Part shown: in pieces, positions 9,621-64,000 of the stretch
How positions within the stretch are numbered: position 1 is the first letter of the stretch
Layout: each line of letters opens with the position of its first letter
Assembly (NCBI GenBank): GCA_051294375.1
Contig: CM119264.1
Span: forward strand, 28,999,930-29,063,929
DNA from: Paraspadella gotoi
Taxonomy: Eukaryota; Animalia; Chaetognatha
Direction of reading: 5' to 3'
DNA: 64,000 bases
Notes under the pieces: generated by a model
The model's input: the letters and a program-made list of their open reading frames with translations, nothing else
Databases searched by the model: none
What the model was told of the DNA's origin: nothing
Translations under genes and position numbers: made by a program

Positions 9621-12600
9621 AACCGCAAAAGATTCCATAGAAGAGAACGAAGAGAGTGACGATGCCAAGAAAGATGAGAGGCCATCTCTCTTTCTTGGCC
9701 TCAGCCAAATCCTCTTGGCTCAGAATGCCGTTCTCTCTCTCCTTCTTTTCTCCGTTGATCAGGCGATTTTGGACTTGGCGAATGAGGATGTAAAGAAGTA
9801 GACCGACTTCGAAAATGCCGACGATGGCCACGCAAGATTCTTGCATCGGAGTCATTTCTCGTTTGCCTGGACAATAAAAATATTTTTGTTTGGTTGGTAT
9901 TTGTATGGGTTGGTCAGCGTGCTAGTTGGGTCAAAAGATGAATCAGTTTGGTCATTTGTAAGGGTTGGTCGGCGTGCTAGTTGGGTCAAAAGATGAATCA
10001 ATTTGGTCATTTGTATGGGTTGGTCGGCGTGCTAGTTGGGTCAAAAGATGAATCAGTTTGGTCATTTGTTTGATGTGTTTGCCTTAATAGGAGTTTGATT
10101 GTTTTGTTGGAGGCATTTAATCTTTACAGTCTAAAAGTCAACCAATTCCTGGCAATTTGAATTTGTTAAATCTTTTCTCGCTCAAATCATTTCCAAATTG
10201 ATCTATAAAATGTGCTATCATTCCAATAAAAAAAAAGAAATAATCAATTTTCGCTAATTTTTAATTAAATAAATCATTACCTCCTGAAGAAAACAAATAA
10301 ATGAAGCCAGAGATTAGAGCGATGATCCCCAAAAGCCAAAGACATAAACCAAATATCGCATGAACCAAGTTGAAAGTGAAGCGCAAATTACTTGAAGGAC
10401 CTAAAGGTAGAGGATAATGTTATAAGTACAGGACATATGTATATGTATTGTTTTGTCTCATATCACCATTAATGAAAAATTTCAACAACATTTCAAATTA
10501 ATATTTTTTGGTTTTGTGCTTGTTGTGCACGTCCAGTAATTGTTCCATGCCAAACATGATAAAAATCAAACAAAAAAAATTGGTGACCTGGCCTCATGAG
10601 CCCCATGATGGCTTGCACGATGACCAAGAGAAAAGTGATAAAACCGCTGACTGTGTGAAGTTTTTCCAGTTCGAGCTCCCAAGACTCATACTTCATGGAG
10701 AGAACGAAGCCGGCGACGGTGAAAAGAAGAGCTGAAGGAAATAACGAGAAAATATTTCAAATCTTGTTACGGAAGTTGGTACGAAATGGACGAGCAGCAA
10801 TTTTTAGTAAGTCACTTACCCGTGATCATCGACGCGGCGTGAGCAGCGAACCAACTGCGTTTCCCAAAGATTTTTCCGTTGCCTCCTATCAAACGGAAAG
10901 AAGTGGAAATGGTGACTCCTAGAGGCACAGCGCCGATCCAAGCGATCGACATGAATGTTCCGTGGAGTTTAATAGGCCATTTCTCTTTCGTCTTCGGTGC
11001 AGTTGTCGTTTTCATTGTTGTTGTTGCCGTTGTCTGTGGTTCCGGTGGGTTCTCCAATGGCGCGCTGAAAAAGGGAGGCATCTTGACGACCTGCTTCTAA
11101 AGTTTTAGGGTCACGTCTCTTTGTCACATATGTCTCGCTCTGTTATCCGTGTTCCAACCCTTAAATCGACCTAGAAACTCATCGTTTGGATTTTTTGTTT
11201 GCATTGAATACATTCTGGATTAACTCGGGGTAGAATTAACTTTAAAAACTCTTTAAAATTAAAAAAAGTAAAAATGAGACATAAATGATACACTGGTACA
11301 GTTACGTAAGTACTTTAAATTTTTGTAATTTCTCAATTATTATTTGTAATTAAAATAAAAATTATTTTCGAAGGCCTCTGCTTACAATCCTCGCATTCAG
11401 ATAAAAAAACTAGTTTTTCCAGTATTGTTCAGTTACTACTAAACAAATAAAATTTAAATTGCCCCATAATATAAATTAGGCCAAAATACGGATTAGTTAA
11501 AACCATCTCCAGCTATTTCTAATCATATAAGAGTAACATTTTTTGCAACTTTTAGGGAAAAAATCATGTCCATTTTTGTCCATTTTCACTTTCGTCTTCA
11601 AATTTGAATGCCAAGGAAAGTTGAGAAAATTTTTTATTTTGGAATTCCTTTCTTCCTTATCTTCTTCACCCCTGAGTAAAATATTTTCCTTATATCATTC
11701 ATAGTTCACTTATGAATTAATTTGAAAGTTGACAAGTCAAAAATTCGCAGTTTAGTTTTATTATATTTATTAAACAAAAATAGTTTTAAATTGGCTTAAA
11801 CTAACAGAAAATATAGCCCACAGAATAAGCTTTTAACATCTACAAAATTATCAAAAAAACTCATTTCGTTTTAGCCATAAATATTTTTTAAAGACGACAA
11901 TTAATTTGTGACTTTTTGTGACTTGCATTTATTTTAATAAAGATAAGATTTTAAAATTTATTTTAGTTTTAACAATTGAGGAACATACTGACGTTAATAA
12001 AACAAAAAAAACCGCATCCTTTTAAACCAATGGAAAGCGTCAGGCCTTGTTTTTTCTCAAAGATCGACAGATTTTGCGGAAATATTTTCGCAAAATCTGT
12101 CGATTTACTAAATTTGCCAGGCAACCAAAATTGAAAGAAAAATCATGAGATACCGTAAATTTCTTTTCTTATAATGGATAATAAGAAATTTCTTTGATTT
12201 GGCTCAATGTAAAGACAGAAAAGTAGTGGGAGGGAACAGGAAAGGGGAGAACAAGAAAAGGAGAAGGGGAGAATGAGAAGAGAAAGGGGAAAAGCATAAA
12301 AAAAGAAGGCAAAGGGAGAAAAAAATAAGGAGATAAAGGAAAGGCGGAAAAAGAAGGGAAAAAATGGAAAGAAAAAGAGGGGAAAAGAGGGGAAAAGAAA
12401 GAGAAGGAGAGAAGGCAATAAAAAAGGAAAAGGAAAGTGAAATATGTGGCAGAGAAAGGTAGGGTCATAGAAAAGGTAAGTTACGGCGTGAAAAGTAGGG
12501 AGGAAAAGAGGAAGATAAAAATAGAAACACAGAGAAAAAAGAGATGAAGAAAGAGAATCAGGGAAACGGTATGAAAGGGAAAAAAAATGTATCAGATAAT

Positions 12601-14674
12601 GTGGCATCTTGTCTGAAAAGTTTTGTGTAAATAAAAGCCACAAAAATTAAAAGGAGGAATTTGATCTTTAAAAGTTGTTTGTACCATAAAAAATTCATCA
12701 TACTTTCATCTCAAATTAGGTAGTTAATGAGATTAGATTGATAATCTCCGAAGAAATCATGTCTTACCGTATTTTTAACTCATAGAAATTTAACTGAACA
12801 GTACTAGGTATTAAGAATGAGATAACCATAGCAAACCGTTTTTTTAAACAAAGAAAACTTCATACAATCACTGAGATCAAAAGAGATGGTAATATTTAAG
12901 TTCAGAAATCGTTATCTAAAGGACGTCGATCGTACGTGGAGCCGAAGAATGTTTTTTATCTCACCTCAGTTTGTATTTTCGATCACTGTAAAAGTCCTTG
13001 TCATGTTTTTTAAGCCGATAATTTGTGTCAATAGTCGCAACTTCTCCATGGGCAAAGAAAATGACCTGAATTAAGAAAAGTTAAAACTAGTTTGTTCGGC
13101 AATGTTAATTTCTAACAATGTAAAAATATTTTGGTATTTTAAACTGCACCTGACACAACTCCAAACTGCTCCTGACACAACTCCAAACTGCACCTGACAA
13201 AACTCCAAACTGCACCTGACACAACTCATAAGTGTCTCTACCTGATGTTCATCAATATGATAAACTTTTGGGTCATTGACTTTCATCTCTCGGGTGAAGT
13301 TGCAGTCAATTGTAGTGTTGAAGGCGACGGCAGAGATATTGGTCAGGCCTGGGCAAGATGGATTGTAATCATGATAAAAATAATTTTAAATATACGGTTG
13401 CAATATATATATATAAAAAGCCGTTATATTCTTTAACTCTGACCAAGACTTGGATTTGACATTAGGACGTTTCCAAATGGGTTAATTGTGTTCCACGAGG
13501 CGGCCACCTCAACGCTCCCGTTCAACATCGCACAGTGGATAACGCTGTGATGAATATTTATCAATTTTATTTTTATATAATTTTGGTACAACCAATGTGA
13601 AATTCTAATTTTTTTTTATTAAACCTGCTATCTTGCGCCTGACATTGGACAATTGGACAGACTATAGTGGGTTAAGTCCTTCATCTCTCTCACAAGATAA
13701 TAACAAAGAGGAAACTCATAGCTTTTAATCAAGACTCTCTCTCTCTCTCATAGTTTATTTACTCCCACAGTGCTTGGCTTCCCTATCAATGATGTGTTAT
13801 AATGTTTTAAAGAACTTACCACTCCCTAACTATTAGATAAGGGAATACTATGGCAACAGCCGGGTTGCCTGTGATGCCCATTGGGATGGGGCATCTCACT
13901 GTTGGCTTTAGGGGCTTCCGACCCTCAGTGAGGCCTCCAGTCACTGGCGCGGTTACCCTAGGACGGTCTCGCTTTGCCAACGCAGAGGGAAGTCGTTAGG
14001 ACTGTGGATGGAACACTACGCCTGGGATGGTGTGTTCCCCCTCTGAGCCAATGGATTTGGCTGACGGATGGTGGACGTGAGGCGGTGTGAATATACCGCC
14101 ACAATACTATACTTTGATTATTATGATATTGGTACATGAAATATAAAAATGATCCATCTGAGGCGACTTATGATCGGTCTCTCTCTCTCTCTCTCAACCC
14201 TTTCTCTTTCCTGGTGGAGGACGGTAAATCCACTCGGTCGCCTCACAATGTGAGGCTTATATCCCTTCGATAACTATTTTAGTTCTCTTAGACTCACCCG
14301 TTCCTTACCTGTCCAAGCCCATCTTCGAGTCCGGTGAAAGGCCCATGGCGATATAACCGCTTCCATTGTGATTCGTTTTTCCGTGAAGTCGAAAGTCAAT
14401 CACGTCCCCGTTCGGCATCCAATCCAGTTGGTATATGCAATCGCTTCCTATCGTTTGGATTTTGGTTCGTTCATATTGGAGACACAGCAATGGACGAAGA
14501 TAGTCGAAAGGTTCGCATCGGGCATTTCGTCTTACCGCAATCATTGGGATGTTTGAGAGAGAACCAAGAGCCGAATTGCTGAAGCGTGTGACGGATTTTT
14601 GAGGCGTCGACCAATGACGTCACGCTTATCGTCACGATCATCACCCAACTCAGTGATTTGAAAGAGAGTCCCAT
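9610..14674 (-). CDS. DOMON + cytochrome b561 ferric-chelate reductase (FRRS1/SDR2-like), 9 exons, about 450 aa
   Basis: Hand-spliced GT-AG exons: 14674-14536, 14447-14309, 13544-13444, 13348-13242, 13065-12965, 11064-10820, 10731-10588, 10400-10281, 9866-9610. They sum to 1353 nt with consistent phases. The protein has a hydrophobic N-terminus, DOMON motifs (GYIAMGLSPDSKMGLDSVIHC..ASWN, IDCNFTR, FFAHG), a Thr/Pro linker and a b561 domain with four heme His (KLHG, WFAAH, KLHT, NLVHA). Intron 1 and the last exon are less certain. Confidence 0.9.
9895..10068. repeat. 55-bp intronic tandem repeat, 3 units
   Basis: TTGTA starts at 9901, 9956 and 10011. Confidence 0.9.
12062..12103. repeat. Intronic palindrome
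   Basis: ATCGACAGATTTTGCG-GAAATATTTT-CGCAAAATCTGTCGAT. Confidence 0.8.
13141..13227. repeat. 22-bp intronic tandem repeat, 4 units
   Basis: AAACTGCACCTGACACAACTCC repeated. Confidence 0.9.
13901..13981 (-). ncRNA. Twister self-cleaving ribozyme, circularly permuted type P5
   Basis: The minus strand reads GUUGGC AAA GCGA GACCG UCCUAGGG U^AA CCGC GC CAGUGA-9nt-UCACUG AGGG UCGGAAGC CCCU AAA GCCAAC. Pairings: P5 6 bp, P2 3 of 4 bp, P3 6 bp, P4 4 bp, T1 pseudoknot CGG/CCG, T2 GC/GC. The conserved UAA, GA and L4 AAGC are present. Predicted cut between 13955 and 13954. Confidence 0.8.
14006..14051 (-). promoter_or_regulatory. Pol III type-2-like A box/B box upstream of the twister in the solo LTR
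   Basis: Minus strand TGGCTCAGAGG (A-box-like) followed about 30 nt later by GTTCCATCC (B-box-like). Confidence 0.4.
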
Positions 14675-14918
14675 TATCTCACCGATGCAGAGGCTTTAAT
14701 AAAAATTCATTTAAATATCACTTTTCTTTTACGAAAATTAAATTACCGACAGATTTGTCGGTACCGACTATTAGTAAATTTTGCTAATTACTTATTTTAC
14801 TATACTAAAATTAATTTTTATTTGATTGGTTTTCAAACCGTATGGATCGAAACGCTCTGACGCTCAAATCGGGCTGGGCTTTTGTACTCGACGATGGCAC
14901 GGCCACGAGGACCTCACT

Positions 14919-14978
<60 letters not shown>

Positions 14979-15448
14979 CTCTTTCTCTCTCTCACTCGTC
15001 ATTGATTGAATCCAGTTGAGCAACTTCGATTTCAAATCGATTCAAGAAGAGAAAGAAAACAGGTAATTAAATAGATAAATTCGATTGAATCCGCACAATT
15101 AGTCGAGAACTCAGAAACTTACTTGATAAATGTATAGTTGAAAAGTTGAAATGTTTAATGTATGTATAAATATCCAATCAAACTGTACGTATGATCAGTT
15201 ACTTTCTGGCATTTGATATCAATCGTGTTTTGCATTGTAGAGATGATCAGTCTTGATCAGATGATTAGTGCAATGGTCTTTCTCTCTATCTCTCTCTCTT
15301 CATTCATCTATCTATTTATTATTAAATGTATATTAGATAAAAGAGAACAGGCTGTTAAAGAAGTTGCGGATAGCACTCTTTAGCCCCACTTAGCGCCATA
15401 TCCACATATTCTTACAGACAAAGAAAGATTTTTATTTAAATTGTTAAA

Positions 15449-15930
15449 TAACAAGTTTGAGCAAACAATGCCGGATCTGCCCACGATCATTAGCGGTAAG
15501 CAGCTAATCAGATAATTAATTAATTAATATTAATTTTTTTTATTCGTGTCAAAATCGTTTTCCACTTTGTCTCGCCTCTCAATCACAAAACAGCAATCTC
15601 GATCACAAAATTAATTAATTAATTAATTACAAATAATTAATTAATTACTTATTTATTAATAATTAATTAATGCAGCTTGAATTTACATTTAATATAAAAA
15701 TAAAAAAAGCATAATCAAATAGTGAAATAGATTGTTTTTTTAATTTTTACTCATTTCCACTTGGACGATTCCATGGAAACTTTATTTTCTGCTTAATCAC
15801 ACACTTTCCTATCAACGTACAAAATGTGAAGTCAATCGCCCCATTCACTAATGAGTAATTGGCTTGAAATATATTTTTTGGGGTTTTTTCCATTTTAACT
15901 CATTTGCACTCGGACGATTCCGGCTAAAAA
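15449..15930 (+). mobile_element. Family D copy (duplicated at about 29270-29790)
   Basis: Same start motif and AT-rich body as the 8610 copy. Confidence 0.65.
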
Positions 15931-16262
15931 CTTTTATCTTACCCGGAGTGCTTTGAGAAGTACTATACTAATGAAAGTTTCTGACACCCAATGAGAAAAA
16001 AAATGAAAACCGGATTTTTTTTCCAGGGCTTAAAATATTTTTATGAAACTTATAAAATTAAAAAAAAAAAAGATAAATAATACAAAACGTATGTATAAAT
16101 GTATTTAGATCTACTTTTTTTAACGATTTTGCTAACTTTATTAGTTGTCGAGTCATATTAAGATAATCTTTCAGTTATTTTCTTTTCAAGAGGATTATAT
16201 TAGTGACTTCGCTCTTTGAGTATCTCTCTCTCTCTCGCTCTCTTCTCTCTCTCCTCGCTCTC

Positions 16263-16307
<45 letters not shown>

Positions 16308-16314
16308 CTGCGCT

Positions 16315-16351
<37 letters not shown>

Positions 16352-16705
16352 CTCATCCTTCACTCTCACTGTCTTTGTTTGTCCGGATCTGTTTCTGGCA
16401 AGAGATTTTCCTTTTCGCGAGAAACAAGATTAATTTGAATATTCATTTGGGGTAAGTATAAATACATTTCTTGCTACAATAACAATGAATTTCAGTCTTT
16501 TTTTATTGTAAGTGAAATGTTTTTGTACTTTTAAATGTTTTCTTGTCTTATTTATATGCTTTACATTTTAATATATGTTTTTTAGGAATCTTTTTTAACT
16601 TAGGGGACCAAATGTTAAAGAGAGAAAAGTGACAATTTTGTGAAATATATTATTACAAAATGATCATCTCTTATATGAGCATATTTCTTTTATTTTTCGT
16701 TATGT

Positions 16706-16742
<37 letters not shown>

Positions 16743-17228
16743 TGTTCTTCAGATTTCGGATTTAAGGATTCGCTGACTGAGCATTTTTTTTATTAATTAA
16801 ACAATTTCGATGCTTTTGTCATCGTCGTCATCGTCGTCGTCGTCGTCATCATTACTCGGCGACCAGAATTTAAAACTATTACAAGATTACACGATTTGAT
16901 TCAACGGTACTATAGTCATAGATGTGTTAAAAAGACGAAGGATGTCAATTTTATTACCTATTTTATAATATTTATTTCCGACGACAATAAAATATATAAT
17001 TTTTTTTTTTAAACAATTGGAATTTTATAACCGTTAGTTTTTCCTCTCGCATTTATATTGCTGCCAAAATAAATTTTTAATCGGCAATAAGATGTGAAGA
17101 GTAATAATATCTTAGGGTAAAAAATCGGGCGTGACGCAATAAAATGCGATTCTTTCACATAATTTTTTCTCACTCCGACTCCTCACCATATTTTTCAAAA
17201 GCCGAAAATTTCAGCTTAAATTCAAAAT

Positions 17229-17410
17229 TAGGTTTCAAGAGTTAAGGGTGAGAGATAAGGATTAGGAATAAGGATTAGGTATAAGGATAAGGATTAGGGA
17301 TAAGGTTTAGGGACAAGGATTAGGGATAAGGATTAGGGAGAAGGATTAGGGATAAGAATTAGGATTAGGATTAAGATTAGGTTTAGGATTTGGTATAGAG
17401 TGTAAGGTTA
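17229..17410 (+). repeat. Degenerate TTAGG(G/A)-like hexamer array; similar arrays at 40575-40925 and 49255-49400
   Basis: Interspersed TTAGGG, TTAGGA and ATAAGG units. The 40.6-kb array has a higher-order period of about 60 bp. Confidence 0.75.
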
Positions 17411-17544
17411 CATCTTGGTGTGCTTAAAATTAGGTCAGGGATTAAGGACAAGTCCGGGACGCCTTTTGTAAAATAGTGCACAATAATTTCAACTACTTTT
17501 TTCTTTTCCCTCTTCATAATTAGATTTTCCACCTACGTCTTGAC

Positions 17545-18190
17545 GAGACTCAACTCGACTCGACTCTACTCGACCTGACTTGCTTGACTCGCCTCGCCTC
17601 GACTCGCCTCGACTCAACTTTTGACTTGAATCTTGACTTGAATTTTGATTTGACTCTTGACTTGACGTTATTTTAAGGTTACATCTTGGTGTTAAAATTA
17701 AGGTCAGGGATTAGGAACAGTCCGGGACACTTTTGTAAAATAGTGCAAATAATTTTAACTACTATTTTTTCTTTCCCTCTTCATAATTAGATTTTCCACC
17801 TACGTCTTGACTAGACTCAACTCGACTCGACTCTACTCGACCTGACTCGCTTGAATCGACTCGACTCGACTCGACTCGACTCGACTCGACTCGACTCGAC
17901 TCGACTCGACTCGACTCGACTTGACCTGACTTGCCTCGCCTCGCCTGACTCGACTTTTGACTTGAATCTTGACTTGACTTTTGACTTGACTTGTGATTTG
18001 ACTTTTGATTTAACTCTTGACTTGACTTTTGATATAACTCTTGACTTGACTTTTGACTTGACTTTTGATTTGACTTTTGATTTGACTTTTGACTTGACTT
18101 TTGATTTGACTCTTGACTTGACTTTTGATTTGACTCTTGACTTGAAATTTGACTTGACTTTTGACTTGACTTTTGACTTCACTTGACATT
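17545..18190. repeat. (GACTC)n and (TTTGACTTGACT)n satellite within a local duplication of about 270 bp
   Basis: Pentamer run at 17850-17920 and 12-mer run at 17955-18180. 17404-17670 is repeated from 17675. Confidence 0.85.
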
Positions 18191-18720
18191 TGATCAGACT
18201 TTACTACCCAAACTCCCGAAGATGTTCTTTTCGTGGACAAATTGACAAAGATTTCAAAGGTTGCAACGAGAAAGGGAAATTGAGGTCGGGATGAGGGAAG
18301 AAAGGAAAGGGGAAAGGAAATTGAGGTAGGGACCCACTCAGTTGTCAATGTCATAGAAAAGGATCTCGGCTCTCGGCTTTTCCTTCTCATTGTTTGGTTG
18401 AGGGTTCCGTCTCTTAGAGCATATCTTATAAGTTATAACATCCTTGTAATGTGAGGAGGGAGAGACTAACAGTTACATTTTCACTTTTCACTTCCCCCTC
18501 CTCTGCCTCTCCTCTTTACCTCCTTTATCTCTTCCTCCACCTCCTCCCATCTCCTGCATCTCCCCCTCCTCTTCCTCCCCCCATCTCCTGCTCCTCCCCC
18601 TCCTCTTCCTCCCCCATATCCTGCACACCCACCACTTCTTCCTCCGCCACCCACAACGGCGTCGATTCCGCCTTCGAGAGGCGAAGAATTTATTTCTTTC
18701 TTCCAAATCAAAATCATCTC

Positions 18721-18752
<32 letters not shown>

Positions 18753-19050
18753 TNNNNNNNNNNNNNNNNNNNNNNNNNNNNNNNNNNNNNNNNNNNNNNN
18801 NNNNNNNNNNNNNNNNNNNNNNNNNNNNNNNNNNNNNNNNNNNNNNNNNNNNGACGAACTCCGCCTTCGAGAGGCGAAGAATTTATTTCTTTCTTCCAAA
18901 TCAAGAATCATCTCTCTTCTTCTTTCTTTCTTTCTTTCTTTCTTTTCTTGTCTTCTTTTCTTTCTTTCTTTCTTTCTTTCTTATTAATTCTTTCTTTCTT
19001 TCACAGAGGAGATTTTGTACGTTATTTTCCGGATTAGATGAGAGAGAGGT

Positions 19051-19955: not shown

Positions 19956-22429
19956 GCAGTGTTATCCACACCGTGGAAAAGTTCATGTCTCGACTTTTAG
20001 GCAATTTTCTGATTGATTTTTGGCAAATATCTTGTCTTTAAACTCCGTTTGCCATTATCTATTAAACGTTATTTCGTTTTTGTCTTAGTACGAATTATTA
20101 TTTCAGTGCAGTCTTTGCTTTTTTTGTTTTTTTTTTTTTTTTCCGATGCAAATTGTGAATTTTTTGATTGCATGGTTTGGTACCACAAATCATTATATCA
20201 CCGTCAGAAAATTAACTAATTTTTTATAAAAACCAATATATTTTTAATTTAATCAATTCAACAGCTCTTTCGCTTAAGGTTTTCTGTTGACATATATATT
20301 TGTTTATTTTAATTGATGAATGAAAGTGCCAATACAGTGTGCGATTAAGTTGGCCAGAAGTGATTTAAGAATGAAATGAAGCCTCCGAGAATTTCCTTAA
20401 GGTTCAGCTTTAAGTTGTCGGGATATTTAGGGATAATCATCGAAACTTTAACTTCAAAGAAGGCGCATTTCAAATAAAAAAGCTGGGGTTGGCTGTCGAG
20501 AGAGCATAACCCTTGTTTGCGTTTTTTTTGCTGGGTTTTTTCGTTTTAAGAAAGAAATCATGGACGCTTGCAAGTTAACTAGTTTATGTAAATCCGAAAT
20601 TTTTTATTTTCTATATAAAGTTAACTAAGAAGTTGCGGAGTCGACGAAAGAGAGATGAGAGGAGAAAAGAGAGAGAGAAAAAAGAAAAGAGAAGAAGAAG
20701 AGACTAGGAGAAGAAGAGGGAAGAAGAAAAGAGAGGCTGAACGAATCAGCGATGCTGCGTTGATAAGCTAAGAGAGAGAAAGAGAAGAGAGAGATGACGA
20801 TGAGAGAGAGAGCACGAGAAGAGGAGAAGACACGAGATGAGAAAGAGAGCAGAAAGAGAAGGGAGAGAGAAAAAAAAAAAAAAAAAGAGAGCAGAGAGAG
20901 AGAGAGCGAGAAGAGATGAGGAGAGAGAGAGAGAGCATCGTAACTAAGCCTCTGCAGCATGTGAATCATATACATACACATGTGACACTCATATCCATCT
21001 AGTGAGATAAATGCACAAAGATCGTAGATACAGTTCACTCTCTGAGAGAAAGACTATGAACGAGTCTCGTGCATACTCTCTTGATTGAACGCTCTAATGG
21101 TACTCTGCATTAACAACTCGTCTTGACAGCACACTCATCAAATCTCTTCTCCTAATTAAACGACTCACTCCTCTAGTGATACAGTAGCCTCTCCTCCTCC
21201 GTTCATATCGCATCTCTCCTTACTCTCTTTACACTCTCCTCTCTTACAACTCTCTTACAACTCTCTCTAACATCTATATTTTAAACTCTGGCTCTTTACC
21301 TCTCTTCTTATTCCATTGAACATAACTACCCTAATTGAACCCACTCTCTCTTTTTTGCCATACAACCGCTACTCTTACTACCTCCGTAATGATTTTTGAT
21401 TAACTACCGCCGTACTTTTGCTACTCCTCTAACCTAAACTAAATTTCGACTTGCCGTATCGTCTATAACCATACTATTCAAGCAATTCGAACTTCTTTTT
21501 TCTATTACCCATACTCATTAAATCAAGATTGATGCTTCGATTAAGTCATAATAAAGGGCATCGTTACGCTCATTATTGACATAGTCAGTCTTATGATGCT
21601 TCTGACTGACATCTCATTCATTTAACTTTTCTACAATCGTCTAAGCTTGATTACGACTTACTCTCTCTTCTTCATGACCTCAATTGGATAAACTCCAATT
21701 CACTTCATCACATATCTCGTAACTTACTAAAGCATAACATGCCTCTCGTCTGCTTTTCTTATACTGTGAGTGAAAGTAACGAATCGTGTTAAAGTAGCAG
21801 TCTATAAACAACTCTCTCTCTCTGAGAGAGAGACTGAGTATAATTGAACTCATCTAGACGCAAGAAGAAAGTACAAGTGTCTCTCTACTATTAAATTAAA
21901 CCCTATCGAACAATTCTCTGACGATGTTAAATCTCCTTTTCGTGATTCTTCTTGTCTATGCATACATAACATGATCGCCTCGTCCATAACTACTCTTAAT
22001 AATCGCGATATAAAATAGTAACAACAATCTGGCATACCTCCAAATACCCTACTATACATCCTACTTATAATCATCTTACTACTACATCTAACTTAATCAA
22101 CCGCCCTATACCTCCCCACTGCATCTTCGCCTATCTAAGACCGAAAAGAAAAATATTAAGGGTGATAAAAAAGGCGACGACGAAAAAGAAAATCTCTTCT
22201 CCGGTGAAATGAACAAAATAATAAATAATAAACAAACAAAATCAAAAAAAAACTATGAGCTGTGAATACAACTTTGGTTCGTTCACGAGTTGATCCCTGA
22301 TTAATTCGTGAATCATTCATCGCCTCACGAATGTGAAATCAAAGGAACAAAACAAAGACGAAATAGGGGATGCAAAAGTGTATATCGGTGACTCTTTCTC
22401 GCTCTCTCTTTCTCTCTCTCTTTTATTTT

Positions 22430-22998
22430 TGTGGATAAGGCGCTACGTGGGCTGAAGATGACTGTCCGTAACTTCTATAACCCCCTCTAGCAGCCATGGA
22501 ACGGGTCCCTGGGCTTGGAACCAGGCTTGAGGGTCACAACTGAAAGTGTCATGATTCTAGGCGGGGTGAACCTAGGCAATGCCCGACTACATGCCCCCCA
22601 GATTGTAACCCACCCTGCACTGCTTCCAGTGGAGGGAGGGGAGCAATCTTCAGCTAGACCAAGGGCCTGGAATCAGAAGGTTGGAATACGCTCGACAGGA
22701 TGGGCTCACCAGTGTGGTTAAGGCGCTACGTGGTCTGAAGATGACTGTCCGTAACTTCTATAACCCCCTCTAGCAGCCATGGAACGGGTCCCTGGGCTTG
22801 GAACCAGGCTTGAGGGTTTGCCATGCCCCCAAGGCGGCTAACGGCCGTCCTCACGCTTCCCGCAGGGTAGGTACCGGGTTGGGATTGAACCCGATACCTA
22901 GTGGTCATGAGCTGATGGCTTTACTCAATGAGCCACCGGGTCACAACTGAAAGTGACATGATTCTAGGCGGGGTGAACCTAGGCAATGCCCAACTACA
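22430..22998 (-). mobile_element. TRIM-like element, family B, with a 124-bp deletion in the 3' LTR
   Basis: 5' LTR 22998-22713 (286 bp), internal region 22712-22592 (121 bp, PBS and PPT), 3' LTR 22591-22430 (162 bp). The termini match the 63-kb copy. Flanks TTTT/TTTC form an imperfect TSD. Confidence 0.85.
22784..22863 (-). ncRNA. Twister-like (type P5) module in the 5' LTR
   Basis: GCGGG AA GCGU GAGGA CGGCCG UUA GCC GC [P3] G [CCUGG UUCCAAGC CCAGG] GA CCCGU. It has UUA rather than UAA at the expected cleavage site and a weak P2. Confidence 0.5.
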
Positions 22999-23877
22999 TT
23001 TCTCTTGTTTGTTCACAACTCACAATTTGCTTCGACGGGGATGTCACTCGGATATTTTTTATAAAATTAGTACAACCAATATCATAATTATTCATTCGTT
23101 TTTTAAATGAGTTATCTTGTCCACCATAAAACTAACTTCTCGGTAAAAAATCCTAGTAAATGAACCGGAAATTAAATAAACAAAAAAAAAAAAAAAAAAA
23201 CAATAGATAAGGAAAAATTCATTTCCTGGGCCAAGCTTGCTTCCATGCTTGCTTCCAAGCTTGCCTCCACGCTCTCGTAGTTTCTACAGTTCAAATTTCC
23301 CCTCAGCTGGCGTTTGCCACCCCTGCGACCGACAGGTTGGACTTTAATGGCGTTGCCAGTCGAGGGTGTGTCTTCCCCGCCATTTTAATGATGAACATAA
23401 ATTTTCGTCTAAATCATTGATGCTTCCCGTCCTTCGCGTTGAGGCGTAAAATCTGGGAGAGGGAACAAAAAGCGGGAAAAAGAAAACGGCGAGAGAGAGA
23501 GAGGGAGAGAGAGAGAGAAATAGAGCGAGAGGGAGAGAGGGAGAAAAAAAGAGAGAGAAAGAGAAAGACGGAGAGAGAGAGGAGAGAGAGAGAGGGAGAC
23601 GGGGGAGAGAGAAAGAGACAAAGAGAACGAGTGAAGGAGAGAGAGAGAGATAAAAAGAGAGAGAGTGAGAGAGGGAGTAAAGAAGAAGAAAAAATAAATG
23701 GGAAAACACCAAAAAAAAAAAAAAGAGATAGGAGAATAGAAAGAAAGGGAAAAATAATGGGATAAAAATAAAGAAAAAGGAAAAAAAGGAAAATTCGGGT
23801 GTGAAAAAAAAATTTTGAATTAAAATGAGGAATTTTTTTTATTGAGGTGAAGAGAGGCGGGCGGTTGGGGGGGGGGC

Positions 23878-24422
23878 ACTTGAGAAAGCCTTGTATAGAG
23901 AGACCTCCAGGTTAAACTCCCCGCTCTTCTCGCTGGGAGACCCACCAATTCGCCTAAACACTGAGAAAGGCTTGTATACGAGAGACCTCCAGGTTAAACT
24001 CCCGCTCTTCTCCGGACCCACCAATCGCCTACACTCGAGAAAGCTTGTATAGAGAGACCTCCAGGTTAAAACTCCTGCTCTTCTCGCGGACTCCACCAAT
24101 CGGCTCTACAACTGAGAAAGCTTGTAATAGAGAGACCTCCAGGTTAAACTCCCGCTCTTCTCCGGACCCACCAATCGCCTACACTGAGAAAGCTTGTATA
24201 GAGAGACCTCCAGGTTAAACTCCGCTCTTTCTCCGGACCCACCAATCGCCTACACTGAGAAAGCTTGTATAGAGAGACCTCCTAGGTTAAACTCCTGCTC
24301 TTCTCCGACGCCACCAACTTCGCTAAACTGAGAAAAGCTTGTATAAGAGAGACCTCAGTAAACCCGCTCTTCTCCGGACCCACCAATCGCTACACGAAAA
24401 GCTTGTATAGAGAGACCTCCAG
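23878..24422. repeat. 71-bp minisatellite, about 7.5 units (duplicate at 36042-36586)
   Basis: Unit AGAGACCTCCAGGTTAAACTCCCGCTCTTCTCCGGACCCACCAATCGCCTACACTGAGAAAGCTTGTATAG. Confidence 0.9.
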
Positions 24423-26030
24423 CGGGTAAGGGGGAGGCGTTGGGATCTCGGAATTTCGCTGTATTTTCAGTCCGCATCATTGAGTCATCCTGTCGTGTAG
24501 AGCTCAATCTTAGCTGCGTTGTCGAGGGCAGTAATCCTGTATCGTAGAGCGGAATTATCGCTGTATTGCGCGGCGGATTTATCACTTATATCATAGTGTT
24601 CCAATCACCCTGTATTGACAGAGGGTAGTAAAGGTAGTAATGGCTTTGCACCACTGTATCGGAAGAGGCGAGTTATGCTGTATCATGATCGCAGTAACCC
24701 TGTATTGCCAGAGTCGAGTCACCATGTATCCTAGAGCGCAAGTAACCCTAGTATCGTAGAGCCATTGTTTTTTCCCGACGCCCATTTGTTTTTCCTTGTT
24801 GTTTACCGCTTTTAAGTTCTGTGGTGACGACGGAGACGAATCGAGACACGCCCACTTTGGCGGACGTCGGACACGCCCACTTTGGACGTCTTCTTCGATA
24901 AAGAAAGTGAGGGTAAGGATGGGAAAGGTCAAGAGTTCAAGCCCTGTATCTTTAGAGTTAATGGTTTCATATTCGCGATGAAAACGGACCTAGATTTATT
25001 TCGCACAATTTTGCGAATTTTTAAATACGATTAGGTGCTAATATGTAATTAAAAAAGTGAATAAAATAAAATAAAACATTAAACATAAACTTTTTTAGGC
25101 GCTCTCTTCTTTGCTCATTTAACATTGTCGATATTGTTTAACAGCGATACATTCACAAAATTAGCATTTATGTCCGTCTATGAATTTTAAAAAATTGCCA
25201 TATTCGAACGCCGTGACGTTTGCTCATCTCTACGATATTTCCCCGAAGAAGAGCTTTTAATTGACCTTCTATTGACTTTGCGCGACATGTTAATTGACCT
25301 GTTTTTGACCCTCTTGTCATGAACAAGACATTCAAGAGTTTCCTTTTTCCCTTCGAAAAACAAAGGAAAATAGAAAATAAAAGAAAAACGGGGAGGGAGA
25401 AAGGAACAGGAGGTTTCAAAGAAAACAGAAAGCAAGTGAGCAAGTGTGGGATATACCTGAGAAATCGTTTTCAATTTTCTACCTGATACTTATATTTTAG
25501 TGAGGAGTTTAAAAGTGCAAGACAGTTCATTTGAGTATGGAAATGTAGTCTAGAACATTGAAACTTCGGCAATTGAATGTGACTATGAAATGGAAATCAG
25601 ATGTAGACAGCAGAGAATTTGGTTTGTTGATTTCCCATTTTGCCTATGAATCAATTTAAAGCGATAAAGCAAAATAAAAGCGGAAAAAAAAGCAAAACAA
25701 AAGAGTAAGAGAGGGAGAATTGAAATAAAAGACAAAAAGTAAAATGATAATAAGGGAGGGAAAAAGTGAGAGCAGAGAGATGAGAGAGAGAGAGAGAGAG
25801 GACAGAGAGAAAGAGAAGAGAGAGAAGAGAGAGAGAGAGAGAGAGAAAGTGAAGGAGAGAGGAGAGGAGAGAGGTGGTGACAGAGAGAACCAGAGAGACA
25901 GAGAAAGAAAGAGAGAGAAAAAAAGAGAGAGAAAGAGAGACAGAGAGAAAGACAGACAGAGAAAGAGAGACAGAAGAAGAGAGAGTAAGAGAGAGGAGAG
26001 AGAGAGAAGAGAGAAAAGACACGAAAAGAA

Positions 26031-26067
<37 letters not shown>

Positions 26068-26227
26068 TGAGAGACAGAAAAAATGAGAGATAGAAGAAAG
26101 AGAAAGAGAGAGAGAGAAAGAAGAGAGAGAGAGAGAGAAGAGAGAAGAGAGAGAGAGAGAGCAGAGAGAGAAAGACGAGAGAGAGGAGAGAGAGAAGAGA
26201 GAGAGGAAAAGACAGAGAAAGAAAGAA

Positions 26228-26259
<32 letters not shown>

Positions 26260-27306
26260 GAAAATGAGAGACACGAGAAAAGGAGAGAGAAAATGAGAGA
26301 CAGAAAAAGAGAGAGACGAGAGGAGATGAGAGAGAGAGAGGAGAGAGAGAGAGGAGAAGAGAGAGAGAAGAGACTGAAAACGACTCACCTGCCGCGAGAG
26401 AGGAAAAAGGGGCAAGGGCAAAACCCCCGAGGGAACAGAACCAGGTGAGACACCATTTTTTCAAGACGATCTTCTTCTGATGTTTCGTCGTTGTAGTCGT
26501 CGTACGTCATCATCATCAAAAATCATCATCATCGTCGTCGTAGTCGTCGTCCATCAATATGTATTTAATCATCATCGTCGTCATCAAAATCATCGTCATC
26601 AAATCAATCATCAGCATCATCATATTATCATCATCATCATCTTTTGTTTATTTGACATTGAGGTCTCAAGTTGTTGTTTCTGTTGTTGTTGTTGGCTAAT
26701 CTGCGTCCATACCTGAACTGGTGACCTTTGTTGTTGTGCCTCACGTCAAGGATAATGACATCGTCGCGTCGGCGTCGTCGTCGGCTCGCTCGTCGTTGTA
26801 TTTTTATCCCATTCCATCGCCATATTTGGGGCAAAATAACAAATAATGTGATTCTTTCTTAGAGAGAAGAGAGAGAGAGAGGAGGGAGAGAGAGAGAGAG
26901 GAGAGAGAAGAGCCAGAGAAGAGAGAGAGAGAAGAGAGAGAGAGAGAGGAGAGAGGAGAAGAGAAGAGGAGAGAGAAGAGAGAGGGAGATTTTTTATAGC
27001 TTTTGTTCGTGTTGCAGCCAAGACAAATGTTCCCGGTTTTTCAACAACGTGGTATAAAATATTCGAAAAAGTGGAAAAAAACGTTTATGACGAATTTAAG
27101 TCTGGCATACTTTGTTCTTTAGTTTCTCTTAGTTCGAGTTCGCAGAATTCAATTATTGAGCCCTAAAAAATTATAGACAAGAGTAAACGTTCTAAAAGAA
27201 AACTATATTATCTTATGTTGAATTAAAATCGGTGAAGGAGAGTTTCGAACGACGAACGGCGACGACAATTTCTCTTCAGATGATTGACAGTTCTTTTTTT
27301 TTTATT

Positions 27307-27359
<53 letters not shown>

Positions 27360-28005
27360 GCGACTGAAAGACTCAGTGATTCCACAAAAGAAAATAAATA
27401 AAACCGACGCCGCTCTTATCGTCGTCCTCCGCCCCCTCTCACTTCCGGCGTTCCCCGGCGTTTTCCCGCCCCTTTGCCCCCCGCACAGACCGGCGTTTTT
27501 GAAAACGGGGGCGTCGTTTCGCGCGACGGAGCACAAACAATTCTGGCGCCGGAACGTTAGATGTCGCTTTTTCGCCAATTGCCCGCGCGAGAAACAAAAG
27601 GGAAAACAAAAGGCTCCGAAACGAAGTAAACAGTCGCAGGAATTAATGATATACAGGAAANNNNNNNNNNNNNNNNNNNNNNNNNGACTGTGATGGAACA
27701 CTACGGCCTGGGATGGTGTTGTTCCCCCTCTAGCCAATGGAGTGGCTGACGGATGCCGTGGACGTGAGGCGCGTGTGAATATACCGGCCACAATACTCAT
27801 ATACTTTGATTATTATGCATTTGGTACATGAAATATAAAAATGATCCATCTGAGGCCGACTATGATCGGCTCTCTCTTCTCATCTCTCTTCAACCCTTTC
27901 TCTTTCCTGGTGTGAGGACGGTAAATCCACGCGGTCGCCTCACAATGTGAGGCTTATATCCCTCGATAACTATTTAGTTCTCTTAGCACTCACCCGTTCC
28001 TATAC

Positions 28006-28394
28006 CTGTCCAAGAGCCCATCTTCGAGTTCGGTGAAAGGCCCATGGCCGATATAACCGCTTCCATTGTGATTTCGTTTTTCCGTGAAGTCGAAAGTCAA
28101 TCACGTTCCACCGCTTCGGCATCCAATCCAGTGGTATATTGCAATCGCTTTCCTATCGTTTGGATTTTTTGGTTTCGTCATTATTGGAGGACACAGCAAT
28201 GGACGAAGATTAGTCGAAAGTTCCGCATCGCGGCATTTTCGGGGTCTTACCGCAATTCATGGGATGTTTGAGAGAGAACCAAGAGCCGAATTGCTGAAGA
28301 CCGTGTTGACGGATTTTGAGGCGTCGACAGATGACGGTCACGCTTATGACGTCACGATCATCACCCAACTCAGTGATTTGAAAGAGAGTCCCAT
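28006..28394 (-). pseudogene. Frameshifted copy of exons 1-2 of the FRRS1-like gene inside the duplicated block (probably artefactual)
   Basis: Near-identical to 14309-14674 except for many 1-3 nt indels; downstream exons are absent. Confidence 0.6.
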
Positions 28395-28712
28395 TATCTC
28401 ACCGATGCAGAGGCTTTAATAAAAATTTCATTTAAATATCACTTTTCTTTTTCTTACGAAAATTAATATTACCGACAGATTGTCGTACGACTCCAATTAG
28501 TAAAAATTTTGCTAATTACTTATTTTACCTATACTAAAGATTAATTTTTTATTTGATTGGTTTTCAAACCGTTATGCGATTCGAAAACGCTCTTGACGCT
28601 CAAATCGGGCTGGCTTTGTACTCGACGGATGGCACAGGCACGAGGACCTCACTCAATCTTCTCTCGACTTCTCTCTCTCTCTCTCTCTCTTCTCTCTTCT
28701 TCTCTCTCTCTC

Positions 28713-28764
<52 letters not shown>

Positions 28765-31700: not shown

Positions 31701-32781
31701 AGTGCAAATAATTTTAACTACTATTTTTCTTTCCCTTCTTCTAATTAGGATTTTCCACCTACGTCTTGACTAGACCTCAACATCAGACTGACTCTACTCG
31801 ACCTGACTCGCTTGAATCGACTCGACTCCGACTCGACTCGAACTCGATCCGACTCGAGCTCGACTCGCGGACGACTCGTACTGCGACTCGAACTCGACTT
31901 GACCTGACTTGCCTCGCCTGCGCCTGACTCGACTTTTGGACTTGAATCTTGACTTGACTTTTGACTTGACTTGGATTGAACTTTTGATTTAACTCTTTGA
32001 CTTGACTTTTGATATAGACTGCTTGACTTGACTTTATTGACTATTGCACTTTTGATTTGACTTTTATTTGTACTTTTGATTTGACTTCTGATTGACATAC
32101 TGACTTTTGATTTTACTCTTGACTTGGAAATTTGTACTTGACTTTTGACTTTGACTTGTTGACTTCACTTGACATTTGATCAGACTTTACTAACCCAAAA
32201 CTCCCCGAAGATGTTCTTATTTCGGGACCAAATTGACAAAGATTTCAAAGGTTGCAAACGAGAAAGGGAAATTTGAGGTCGGGATGAGGGGAAGAAAAGG
32301 AAAGGGGAAAGGAAATTGAGGTAGGGACCCACTGCAGTTTGTCAATGTCATAGGAAAAGGATCTCGGCTCTCGGCTTTTCCTTGCTCATTGTTTGGTTGA
32401 GGGTTCTCGTCTCTTTAGAGCATATCTTATATAGTTATAACATCCTTAGTAATCCCTGTGAGGAGGGAGAGAACTAAACAGTTACCATTTTTCACTTTTC
32501 ACTTCCCCCTCCTCTGCTCTCCTCTTTACGCATGCCTTTTATCTCTGTCCTTCCACCTGCCTGCCATCTCCTGCATATCCCGCCTCTCATCTTCCTCCCC
32601 CATCTTACCTGCTCCTCCCCCTCCTCTTCCTCCCCCATATCCTGCAACACCACCACTTCTTTTTCCTCCGCCACCCACAACCGGCCGTCGATTCCGCCTT
32701 CGAGAGGCAGAGAATTGTATTTTCTTTCTTCTCGCAAAATCAAAATCATCTCTTTTTCTTCTTTCTTGATTTCTTATCTTT

Positions 32782-32825
<44 letters not shown>

Positions 32826-34596: not shown

Positions 34597-35182
34597 TGTG
34601 AGATAAGGCGCTACGGTGGGCTGAAGATGACTGTCCGTAACTTCTATATACCCCCTCTTAAGCAGCCATGGAACGGGGTACCCTGGGCTTGGAACCAGGC
34701 TTGAGGGTCACAACTGAAAGTGTCATGATTCTAGGCGGGGGAACCGTAAGGCAATGCCCGACTTACATGCCCCCCTAGATTGCTAACCCACCCTGCACTG
34801 CCCTTCCAGTGGAGGGAGGGGAGCAATCTTCAGCTAGACCGAAGGGCCTGGAATCAGAAGGTTGGAATACGGCTCGACAGGATGGGCTCACCAGTGTGGT
34901 TAAGGCGCTACGTGGTCTGAAATGACTGTCCTTTAACTTCTATAACCCCCTCTAGCAGCCATTGAACGGGTCCCTGGGCTTGGAACCAGGCTTGAGCGGT
35001 TTGCCATGCCCCAAGGCGGCTAAGCGCCGTCCTCACGCTTCCCGCCAGGGGTAGATACCCCGGTTGGGATTGAACCCGCATACCTAGTGGTCATGAGCTG
35101 ATGGCTTTACTCAATGAGCCACGGGTCACAACTGAAGTGACATGATTCTAGGCGGGTGAACCTAGGCAAGTGCCCAACTACA
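34597..35182 (-). mobile_element. Copy of the 22.4-kb family B element inside the duplicated block
   Basis: Same flanks and same LTR deletion; differs mainly by indels. Confidence 0.7.
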
Positions 35183-37899: not shown

Positions 37900-37930
<31 letters not shown>

Positions 37931-39064: not shown

Positions 39065-39103
<39 letters not shown>

Positions 39104-41665: not shown

Positions 41666-41849
41666 TGTAGTCTTTCGTGACCCGGTGGCTCATTTATTAA
41701 TACCCTCAGCTCATGACCATCAGGTACTGGGATCGTTCCCCAATGTACCTAGTACCTAGTAGTAGTGAGGACGACCGTAAACCGCCTTGAGGGCGTGGAA
41801 AATCCTTCAAGTCTGGTTCCAAGCCCAGGACCCGTTCCTTGGCTGCGAG
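41666..41849 (+). mobile_element. Diverged, truncated family B LTR relic
   Basis: Starts TGTAGTC, then GTGACCCGGTGGCTCATT...GTGAGGACGACCGTAAACCGCCTTGAGGG...CTGGTTCCAAGCCCAGGACCCGTTCC. Confidence 0.8.
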
Positions 41850-42548
41850 ATAAAAGATCGAGAAAATAACCAGAAAACTTTGGCCGAACGCGTGAGGACA
41901 GATAACGTACGGTCAAAAATAAAAGTTCGGTTGAGACAAGAAAAAGACAAAATGGCTGAGGCGAGGCATAATATTTTACATGTACAGTTGATACCTAATC
42001 CTCAGCTAACATATACGAATAATGTTCGCCTAAAAGTGAACGAGCGAAACTTTTTCTTCGTTGTCACAAGTAAATTTTATCCAGCACAATTTTATCCAGC
42101 ACAATCCTTTTTGCCTCAAAAAAACAAAATAACAAACAGAAAAATAAAAACACGAAAAGAAAGAAAACTCTCCCTCCAAAATATAAAAGGAAAAAAAATG
42201 AAATAAAAATGAAATAAAAAGGAAAAAAAATGAAATAAAAAGAAAAAAAAATGAAATAAAAAGAGTTTCTAAAAAAAGTCTCTTCGTCAAGTTTGTGACG
42301 ATAAATTATTTTTTTTAAAGCTGCGTCCATTAAGACGAATTTCACGCCTTTCGATTTAAACGTGGACGAGCAGACAACAACAAAAAAGACGACGACGACG
42401 ACGACGATGACGACGAAGAGGACTTAGAGGAGAGAAAGATACACATTACACAGATAGANNNNNNNNNNACACATTACACAGATAGCGAGAGAGAGAGATA
42501 AGAAAATCTAGAAAGAAAAGAGAGAGAAACTGAGATACAGATAGACAG

Positions 42549-62585: not shown

Positions 62586-63019
62586 GAATTTGTCCCATCG
62601 ACTGCTTGTCTATCTTTCTGTCTGTCCGTCGGACTGTCTGTCGTTCCTCAGCAAATTAATACATGAATAAGGTAAGAATAAAAAGTAAAATTCGTTACGA
62701 AAAAAGTTTCTATCGTCTAAATCACTGGTTTTGGGAAATCCAATGAGAAACGAGAAAGATGAATCTCCTCCAATTAGAAAGAGGCAAGGATGAGGAGGAG
62801 GAGGGGGAGGAGGAGAAGGAGGAGGAGGAGGAGGGTGAATCAGGAAATAGTTTTGTTGGAGACAAATTCAAGTTGAGACAAATCCTTATATTTTGAATTT
62901 AATTTTATGACAAAAAAGTATATAAAACAAAATACAGTACAGTTCCAAGTTGGGAAAACCCTTGTAGTCGGGCATTGCCTAAGGTTCACCCCGCCTATAA
63001 GCATGACACCTTCAGTCCT

Positions 63020-63092
63020 GACCCGGTGGCTCATTGAGTAAAGCCATCAGCTCATGACCACTCAGGTACCGGTTCAATCCCAACCCGGTACC
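63020..63092 (+). promoter_or_regulatory. tRNA-like segment with Pol III A and B boxes inside the family B LTR
   Basis: TGGCTCATTGA (A-box-like, 63027-63037), an anticodon-loop-like CTCATGA, and GGTTCAATCCC (B-box-like, 63071-63081). The segment recurs in the other full LTR copies. Confidence 0.6.
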
Positions 63093-63481
63093 TATCCTGT
63101 GGGAAGCGTGAGGACGGCCGTAAGCCTTTGGGGGCGTGGCAACCCTCAAGCCTGGTTCCAAGCCAGGACCCGTTCCATTGCTACTAAAGGGGGTTTATAG
63201 AAGTTACGGATAGTCATCTTCAGCCACTTAGCGCCTTATCCACACTGGTGAGCCCATCCTGTCGAGCGTATTCCAACTTTCTGATTCCAGGCCATGGACG
63301 TGCTGAAGATTGCTCCCCTCCTCCGGGTTACATCTGGGGGGCATGTATCGGGCATTGCCTAGGTTCACTCCGCTATAAGGCATGACACCTTCAGTCCTGA
63401 CTGCCGGTGGCTCATTGAGTAAAGCCATCAGCTCATGACCACTAGATACCGGGCTTCAATCCCAACTCCGATACCTACCCT

Positions 63482-63561
63482 GTGGGAAGCGTGAGGACGG
63501 CCGTAAGCCGACCTTGGGGGCGTGGCAAACCCTCAAGCCTGGTTCCAAGCCCAGGACCCGT
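63482..63561 (+). ncRNA. Twister-like (type P5) module in the 3' LTR of family B; a second copy at 63099-63173
   Basis: GUGGG AA GCGU GAGGA CGGCCG UAA GCC GAC [CUUGGGGG..CCCUCAAG] G [CCUGG UUCCAAGC CCAGG] A CCCGU. T1 is UCC/GGA. P2 and T2 are imperfect in this copy. Confidence 0.5.
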
Positions 63562-64000
63562 TCCATTGCTACTAAAGGGGGTTATAGAAGTTACGGATAG
63601 TCATCTTCCAGCCACTTAGCGCCTTATTCCACACCCTTGGATTTTAAGATATATTTAATTAATTTTAAACAAAGCAGTATTTTAAACATAACTGTGACTT
63701 AACAGCTCAAATACCAAAAAAAAATTCAATCTCCCAACCGATTTTGACCCTCGAACAAAAAAAAAAAAAGAAAAAAAGAAAAAAAAAGGGAAAAAAGAAA
63801 AACCTTGAAAAATGGGCGTAAAAGGAGGAGGAGGAGGAGAAGGAGGAGGAGGAGGAAGGAGGGATTTCGGGTAATCTTTCGGAGGTGGACATTTTGTTTG
63901 CAGGTCAACCGTGAAATCGGCCCACGGACAAGATCCATCCAGGATGCGAGATTAAAGACAAGCTTGGGATCTCGCGGGATTTGGGAGGGATTCGTGGCGG

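Follow-up and report, generated by a model that had tools for sequence, protein, structure and literature searches.

The stretch of DNA analysed here (the window) comprises 64,000 nucleotides of the genome of the chaetognath Paraspadella gotoi (assembly GCA_051294375.1, contig CM119264.1, positions 28,999,930 to 29,063,929). It is eukaryotic and repeat-rich, and its assembly is noisy. The window holds two families of short elements with long terminal repeats (LTRs), here called A and B, in which a predicted twister ribozyme lies downstream of tRNA-type A and B boxes in the LTRs. From their sequence features, both are almost certainly non-coding miniature LTR retrotransposons of the Helenus type (TRIMp3), a group of TRIMs, the miniature retrotransposons with terminal repeats.

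Family A is represented by a solo LTR of 255 bp on the minus strand (13849..14103), flanked on both sides by the 4-bp target site duplication (TSD) ATAC (forward strand, left 13845..13848, right 14104-14107). A noisy partial duplicate of its 5′ end, from the same locus, adjoins an N gap at 27686..27790 (minus strand). An earlier note on this DNA spoke of TG..CA ends; the LTR starts with TG and ends with TA. An 855-bp stretch around the LTR was compared with the contigs of four public runs, among them X1 from organism A, X10 from organism B and the biofilm metagenome X11. Matches were found in 8,597 contigs of X1. Among those listed, at least 129 depart at 13849 and at least 72 at 14103, and the flanks beyond these points are mutually unrelated (consensus agreement 0.44 and 0.42). 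Because contigs leave both ends into unrelated flanks, the termini are common to many insertions; shared ends and a TSD had been expected for this family, and both are present. One contig each in X10 and X11 runs past the 3′ end of the LTR into AG and TGGTGAGCCC, which is a primer binding site (PBS). Family A elements with an internal region therefore exist. A whole two-LTR copy was not seen in the contigs, and the PBS junction was absent from organism A's own runs.

In run X9, 17 loose ends from 14104 on gave a consensus (agreement 0.47) that reads, on the minus strand, as a stretch of purines immediately upstream of the LTR and weakly hints at a polypurine tract (PPT) of family A. Contig depth over the LTR is uneven in X9, which may be an RNA run; none of the runs listed for this sequence is recorded as RNA, which says nothing about expression. 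An X10 contig covering 13849-14039 is a family A copy with three differences in 191 nt, two of which are the majority letters of organism A; it may equally stem from a close relative, from contamination or from transfer. Patterns of family A had no match in JGI metagenomes or GTDB genomes.

Family B is known from the window's own noisy copies. A whole element of 671 bp on the plus strand (62963..63633) consists of a 5′ LTR (62963-63244), an internal region (63245-63343) and a 3′ LTR (63344-63633) between the TSDs CCCT/CCCT. Its PBS TGGTGAGCCC (63246..63255) is tRNA-Trp-like with one extra G, and a PPT-like stretch with a run of six G (63335..63343) directly precedes the 3′ LTR. Another whole element of 569 bp lies on the minus strand (22430..22998), with the 5′ LTR at 22713-22998, the internal region at 22592-22712, the PBS at 22702-22711 and a 3′ LTR (22430-22591) that carries a deletion of about 124 nt. 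A noisy duplicate of this locus (34598..35182, minus strand) is part of a 5.5-kb duplication of 89% identity. The last copy, a diverged LTR on the plus strand (41675..41850), is truncated on either side and retains an intact twister core (41763-41828). The 22-kb and 63-kb copies had been taken for single LTRs; they proved to be whole two-LTR elements with PBS and PPT. Likewise, 4-bp TSDs had been assigned to all copies. They were confirmed for the family A LTR and for the 63-kb element, the only perfect case within family B, whereas the 22-kb element has an imperfect pair (TTTT/TTTC, 3/4 bases) and none was identified for the 41-kb copy. The interiors of the two whole elements are non-coding (99-121 nt).

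The decamer TGGTGAGCCC has three exact matches in the window, every one directly after a family B LTR. It matches the printed tRNA-Trp PBS TGGTGACCC of GyRex2 apart from one extra G (PMC3587641, as far as its text is available). A full-text literature search for the decamer returned unrelated papers only, among the matches listed, and the accessible parts of supplement DataS1 of PMC10886601 contain no match.

The A box-like motif of family A, TGGCTCAGAGG (14040..14050, minus strand), fits the Helenus box A pattern TRGCY given in PMC10886601. The B box-like motif GTTCCATCC (14006..14014, minus strand), a variant box (TGTTCCATCC), lies 36 nt downstream, counted from the start of the A box, and departs from the canonical motif at the purine position after GTTC. 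In family B the boxes are TGGCTCA and GGTTCAATCC, 45 nt apart. The combined pattern TGGCTCA-N25-55-GTTCNATCC occurs four times in the window, and each match falls inside an LTR of family A or B; 100 shuffles gave a mean of 0.00. Together with the twister order found in both families, this bears out the common architecture of A box, B box and P5 twister proposed earlier. ARAGORN called no tRNA or cloverleaf in the LTRs, and most Helenus elements are considered unlikely to encode a tRNA (Kojima, PMC10886601, available text). A run of four T (T4) is missing from the sense strand of all family A and B elements, including the family A solo LTR. This fits read-through by RNA polymerase III (Pol III), but it is not unusual for 255-670 nt to lack T4 by chance. 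Folding of the A-box/B-box region of the 22-kb element (22866-22945, minus strand) gives a pair of long hairpins (z -3.9 relative to 200 shuffles); the second lengthens the T-arm to 12-13 bp, and a CUCAUGA word resembles a CAU anticodon loop.

A predicted twister core in both LTR families

A type-P5 twister with an additional P3 stem is predicted on the minus strand of the family A LTR (13901..13981), where structural descriptors match and where a weak Rfam twister-P1 match is placed (13906-13949). The core is composed of P5 (GUUGGC/GCCAAC), a P2 of 3 bp with a C.A mismatch, the pseudoknots T1 (CGG/CCG) and T2 (GC/GC), a P3 of 6 bp and a P4 of 4 bp, with the predicted cut between 13955 and 13954. 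The parts follow the twister order GCG(A/U)-GA-T1-palindrome-UAA-P2-GC-P3-P4(GU-T1′-AAGCC)-P5. The 63-kb element of family B has predicted cuts on the plus strand after 63121 and 63504, which delimit a unit of 383 nt. Across the copies P4 has 4-5 bp, P3 6-8 bp, P2 3 bp with a mismatch or bulge, and P1 only 1-2 bp in the monomer. The catalytic G (in the GA before T1) as well as A+1 and A+2 at U^AA are present in family A, in the 41-kb copy and in both LTRs of the 63-kb element. These positions are not retained in the 22-kb copy, where U replaces the catalytic A+1 in the 5′ LTR (22840), nor in its 35-kb duplicate. Both pseudoknots are fully paired in family A and in the 22-kb and 41-kb copies, while in the 63-kb LTRs T1 is paired and T2 disturbed.

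Two descriptors were applied. The first, written after the sequences had been inspected, matched family A, the 41-kb copy and, when the cut site was relaxed, the 22-kb copy; shuffles of three LTRs gave 0/20,000 matches each. The second is a generic and looser descriptor without a P3 requirement, which was checked on controls and found 4/4 Rfam-positive phage loci and 0/5 Rfam-negative loci. It matched family A and the 41-kb copy; its match in the noisy 35-kb copy was off register. On shuffled sequences it matched 0/50,000 times for family A and 3/50,000 times for family B, with no match in 100 window shuffles. In X1, at a frequency of at least 5%, no variant affects the catalytic G, A+1, A+2 or either pseudoknot of family A. 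The variants inside the ribozyme comprise one L3 loop site and two positions at which the window copy has the minority letter. With the majority letters P3 becomes one pair longer. The counts, one loop site inside the ribozyme against several sites upstream, are too sparse for statistics.

Searching viral contigs with the 18-nt P4/L4 of family B yielded six loci, four of which are Twister-P5 matches above the gathering score (49.6-53.2 bits; L002:763-817, L003:764-817, L005:802-856 and L006:802-855). Their cores are nearly identical to that of family B, with the same UCC/GGA T1 and the same GAGGACG...CGUAA. In three of these twisters, two of them near-identical, P1 begins with CGGCC and ends with GGCCG, and family B has CGGCCG at this place. 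All four viral twisters are located just upstream of a ribosome-binding-like site and a start codon. Three viral matches to a 16-mer of family A were considered as relatives and rejected, since they are not twisters. A hammerhead was not found by Rfam in the window or in the LTR regions.

Several results weigh against a twister. The Rfam scan reported no copy at the gathering score: the best family A match was twister-P1 with 17.9 bits (E 0.98; gathering 67.2), and the best family B matches were Twister-P5 with 15.5 bits (E 1.3 and 1.8; gathering 37.6). The Rfam P5 model lacks the P3 stem and has a long P1, and the weak matches sit at the predicted place in each family. Both cores of the 63-kb element miss both descriptors owing to indels adjoining T2, possibly an artefact of assembly. 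Neither family has a perfect P2, and with the X1 majority letters the outer P4 pair of family A becomes A.C. Minimum-energy folds of the cores contain no twister nesting beyond P4/P5 and do not exceed shuffles in stability (z -1.0 to +0.2); this is expected because pseudoknots are not modelled, and still it is not supportive. Finally, among 125 loci found with degenerate patterns, no convincing prokaryotic or viral twister with the T1 of family A was obtained (best score 8, compared with 10 for family A itself).

The available text of the CHiTA study (PMC11662667) describes that twisters tolerate defects in P1, P2 and outer P4, whereas the catalytic A, the catalytic G and the pseudoknots are indispensable; without the general acid A, activity was abolished. 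In family A and most family B copies the defects fall in the tolerated parts. Following this pattern, the family A and 41-kb twisters are predicted to be active and that of the 22-kb copy to be dead. Altogether, we have high confidence that the sequences in the A and B LTRs adopt a genuine twister fold. Since the motifs score below the Rfam thresholds, more such families have probably been missed; the approximately 1000 new CHiTA candidates could include relatives.

Relation of the families to each other and to known elements

The two families were said to be not alignable by eye, and this was confirmed: the best local score of 21 was reached by 113/1000 shuffles and the best blastn hit had an E of 0.72. 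MAFFT likewise gave no structural alignment of A with B. What is constant between them are the blocks GA, UAA, GC and GU...AAGCC, whereas the three T1 pairs (CGG/CCG in A, UCC/GGA in B) and two outer P4 pairs differ on both sides. The covariation of T1 claimed earlier thus stands as a two-sided difference, but it is a single comparison and no covariation statistic. Within family B (four sequences) pairing holds in 97% of the cells; six changes affect one side of a pair without breaking it, and none affects both sides. A covariance model of family B recovered seven B-derived stretches at E<0.001 and did not find family A at E<=5. An independent link between A and B is the PBS decamer, which follows both LTR families, and the spacing is similar, with the cut after LTR nucleotide 149 and 158 in the two families. 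The view that they represent a diversified class rather than a one-off insertion is partly supported, in so far as there are two multi-copy families of one architecture; the failure of the B-trained model to detect A speaks against it.

The earlier note overlooked that a class of TRIMs with the promoter in the LTR has already been described as Helenus or TRIMp3 (Kojima 2024, PMC10886601). According to the available text, these elements have 4-bp TSDs in animals and a Gypsy helper, and their transcription by Pol III is unvalidated for Helenus too. Judged by sequence, family B agrees with Helenus in every defining feature and family A in all that can be assessed. The likeness comprises the short element with two LTRs and a non-coding interior, the A and B boxes within the LTR, a tRNA PBS, a PPT, a 4-bp TSD, solo LTRs and lengths inside the range of 311-1263 bp; some published Helenus LTRs also end with TA. 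The difference lies in the 130-170 nt after the B box, which in A and B hold the predicted twister and no T-run, whereas most animal Helenus LTRs in the accessible DataS1 end shortly after the B box. In the available text of this paper twisters and crustaceans are not mentioned and the word ribozyme appears in a reference only. By eye, no twister was recognized in the animal Helenus LTRs of DataS1 parts 5-9. The known zebrafish and Nasonia twisters were considered as parts of published Helenus LTRs and rejected, as neither inspection of DataS1 parts 5-9 by eye nor L4 motif searches placed them there.

Two Helenus families of Synergus wasps, Helenus-2_SyJa and Helenus-2_SyUm, resemble A and B when inspected by eye in the accessible DataS1. 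They have A and B boxes, a ribozyme motif downstream, no T4 after the B box, a tRNA-Trp PBS and the 4-bp TSD of their group, the motif being a hammerhead core and not a twister. In both LTRs it reads CUGAUGA...GAAAC with two closed helices and complementary loops, and it is unremarked in the available text of PMC10886601. The 3′ parts of these LTRs share the short words AGAAGTTA and ACGTAG with the 3′ part of family B.

Plant LTR retrozymes carry a type III hammerhead in each LTR and have 4-bp TSDs (Cervera et al. 2016, PMC4918200, available text). Comparably, the 63-kb element is non-coding, possesses PBS, PPT and a 4-bp TSD, and carries predicted twisters in its two LTRs; solo LTRs and a presumed Gypsy helper are further common features. 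A and B differ by the twister, by tRNA-type A and B boxes, by a Trp-like instead of a Met PBS and by a unit of about 390 instead of 600-1000 nt. Family B would be retrozyme-like in its working yet not a strict LTR retrozyme, because its ribozyme is not a type III hammerhead. LTR, PBS and PPT are reported to be missing from animal retrozymes (PMC7761336, PMC7229834 and bioRxiv 10.64898/2026.07.22.740005, each as far as available).

With the type-P5 twisters of Rfam (RF02684), A and B share the order P2′-GA-T1-P1-UAA-P2-GC-P4/L4, the catalytic G and A positions and both pseudoknots. They differ by the added P3, the loop-less P1, the mismatch or bulge in P2, the T1 of family A swapped to CGG/CCG and scores below gathering. 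The twister variants of Perere-3 in Schistosoma mansoni (PMC8501958, available text) similarly have a weak or absent P1 and belong to an invertebrate retrotransposon, but they occupy the 5′ end of an autonomous non-LTR element and their P1 is built from the target site, whereas those of A and B are internal to the LTRs of non-autonomous elements. Perere-3 is the sole link between twisters and retrotransposons that we found. In the open-access literature searched, including the available text of PMC6765202 and PMC5680766, no report of a twister in an LTR or TRIM was encountered. The new part of the present analysis would thus be a twister in the LTR of a Pol III-type TRIM with a loop-less palindromic P1, possibly gated by dimer formation.

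Possible mode of action and alternative explanations

In both families P1 is a palindrome without a loop (UCCUAGGG at 13956..13963, minus strand, in family A). ViennaRNA predicts no monomer hairpin (0.0 kcal/mol) and a homodimer (about -11 kcal/mol; -11.0 for the family A duplex). A parallel is known from axolotl retrozymes, whose hammerheads, with a one-pair helix III and a palindromic tetraloop, are reported to cut efficiently only as dimers, RtcB circularising the product (PMC7229834, available text). Since P1 is a loop-less palindrome in both families, cutting is likely to be efficient mainly when two twisters swap their P1 strands, and by analogy the two twisters of one two-LTR transcript could do so. 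Solo LTRs, such as the one in the sense strand of a host intron, would then be only weakly active and the host gene would be spared. Such a gate is weakened by the finding that P1 is dispensable in vitro (PMC11662667, available text), and the 41-kb copy, in which P1 is no longer a perfect palindrome, weighs against it as well.

Directly visible in the sequence are the LTRs, 4-bp TSDs, PBS, PPT (family B), A and B boxes, the twister core and the absence of a T4 terminator. These elements might be combined as follows. Pol III would start just upstream of the A box of the 5′ LTR and read through into the 3′ LTR. The twisters would likely allow the elements to cut, and perhaps to circularise, their own RNA, with a host RtcB-type ligase closing the unit into a circle. 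A Gypsy helper primed by tRNA-Trp, likely of the CsRn1 clade, which is defined by a Trp PBS and 4-bp TSDs (PMC3630058, available text), would reverse-transcribe across the junction, so that both LTRs are rebuilt and the element is integrated. We lean, with some reserve, towards this complete course of a twister retrozyme. Two further results argue against it. In the predicted 383-nt circle, taken from a noisy copy, 67% of the bases are paired, and it is no more stable than 60 shuffles (z +0.8); this ordinary stability counts against the circular step, as retrozyme circles are highly paired. Moreover, no helper reverse transcriptase was found among the 132 open reading frames of the window that were scanned.

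The ordinary stability of the circle would suit another explanation, in which a leaky twister takes the place of the Pol III terminator. Its 5′ LTR copy would often be skipped, and the 3′ LTR copy would generate the 3′ end of a linear RNA that has about 100 nt (from start to cut) repeated at its termini, undergoes ordinary strand transfer and needs no circle. The weak P1 and P2 suit leaky cleavage, no element has a T4 run, whereas a T-run shortly behind the B box is seen in many of the published Helenus LTRs, and transcripts of Cassandra run from a start in the 5′ LTR to an end in the 3′ LTR (PMC10886601, available text). We nevertheless consider this explanation unlikely, as the ribozymes of both LTRs are identical, the product of two cuts is a known substrate of RtcB, and the absence of T4 is, as noted, of limited weight. 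Still less probable, in our opinion, is that the twister is real but an inactive relic carried as passive cargo by otherwise ordinary Pol III TRIMs. The subthreshold Rfam scores, the imperfect P2, a P1 that cannot form in the monomer, the lost catalytic A of the 22-kb copy and the position of the family A copy, in sense within a host intron and at no evident cost to the gene, would agree with such a relic. On the other hand, the catalytic G, A+1, A+2 and both pseudoknots of family A are intact and free of X1 variants of at least 5%, T1 is fully compensated in two different ways, and the P4/L4 of family B is identical to that of phage twisters of curated score.

A further alternative concerns origin only and is compatible with the retrozyme course towards which we lean: A and B may be separate Helenus-like TRIMs that captured their ribozymes independently, family B perhaps from a phage-like P5 twister. 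Besides the lack of alignable sequence and the failure of the B-trained covariance model to find A, this would explain why the core of family B is closer to phage twisters than to family A. Two wasp Helenus LTRs appear by eye to carry a hammerhead at the same position, and Kojima argues for multiple Helenus origins (PMC10886601, available text). The phage matches were, however, chosen through an exact 18-mer from family B. In addition, A and B share the same permutation, the added P3, the loop-less P1, the order of parts, a similar spacing and the same unusual PBS decamer. Independent capture thus seems possible but rather doubtful, and common descent of A and B likely but unproven. As a tentative and, taken as a whole, doubtful extension, one may imagine a class of animal LTR retrozymes consisting of Pol III-driven TRIMs with an exchangeable ribozyme slot, filled by a twister here and by a hammerhead in the two wasp families. 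P1 would have shrunk to a palindrome, and a strand-swapped double twister would form only on a two-LTR transcript, which would cut at both ends and yield a circle, the many solo LTRs of host introns staying quiet; the twister of family B may in this case derive from a phage-type P5 twister.

If the twister retrozyme course holds true, it joins two groups that were described separately, the Pol III TRIMs (Helenus) and the LTR retrozymes, and extends LTR-type retrozymes to animals. It would also be the second defined task of twister ribozymes in eukaryotes beyond Perere-3. It suggests a way by which a Pol III TRIM can set its RNA ends without a terminator, and it offers a cheap test case for twisters acting as strand-swapped dimers in the manner of weak hammerheads.

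Host gene and further features of the window

The family A solo LTR is inserted in sense orientation in a GT-AG intron (13544..14308, minus strand), recognized by its GT donor, AG acceptor and open exon frames. The exons of this gene (10496-14619, minus strand) encode DOMON (Pfam, E 7e-6) and Cytochrom_B561 (E 8e-5) domains. It is probably an animal FRRS1-like gene.

A separate short repeat of about 60 bp is located at 13753-13814, 35 bp from the family A LTR; it shows a high summed contig depth and sharp common ends in runs X1, X9 and X11. On a larger scale, 14000-18753 recurs at 27686-32786 and 22145-27660 at 34283-39790, with 88-89% identity, many indels and adjoining N gaps. In each of these kilobase duplicates, noisy long reads have probably led to one locus being assembled two times. 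A tandem array with a unit of 71-72 bp is present in both copies of the duplicated segment (23880-24420 and 36046-36586).

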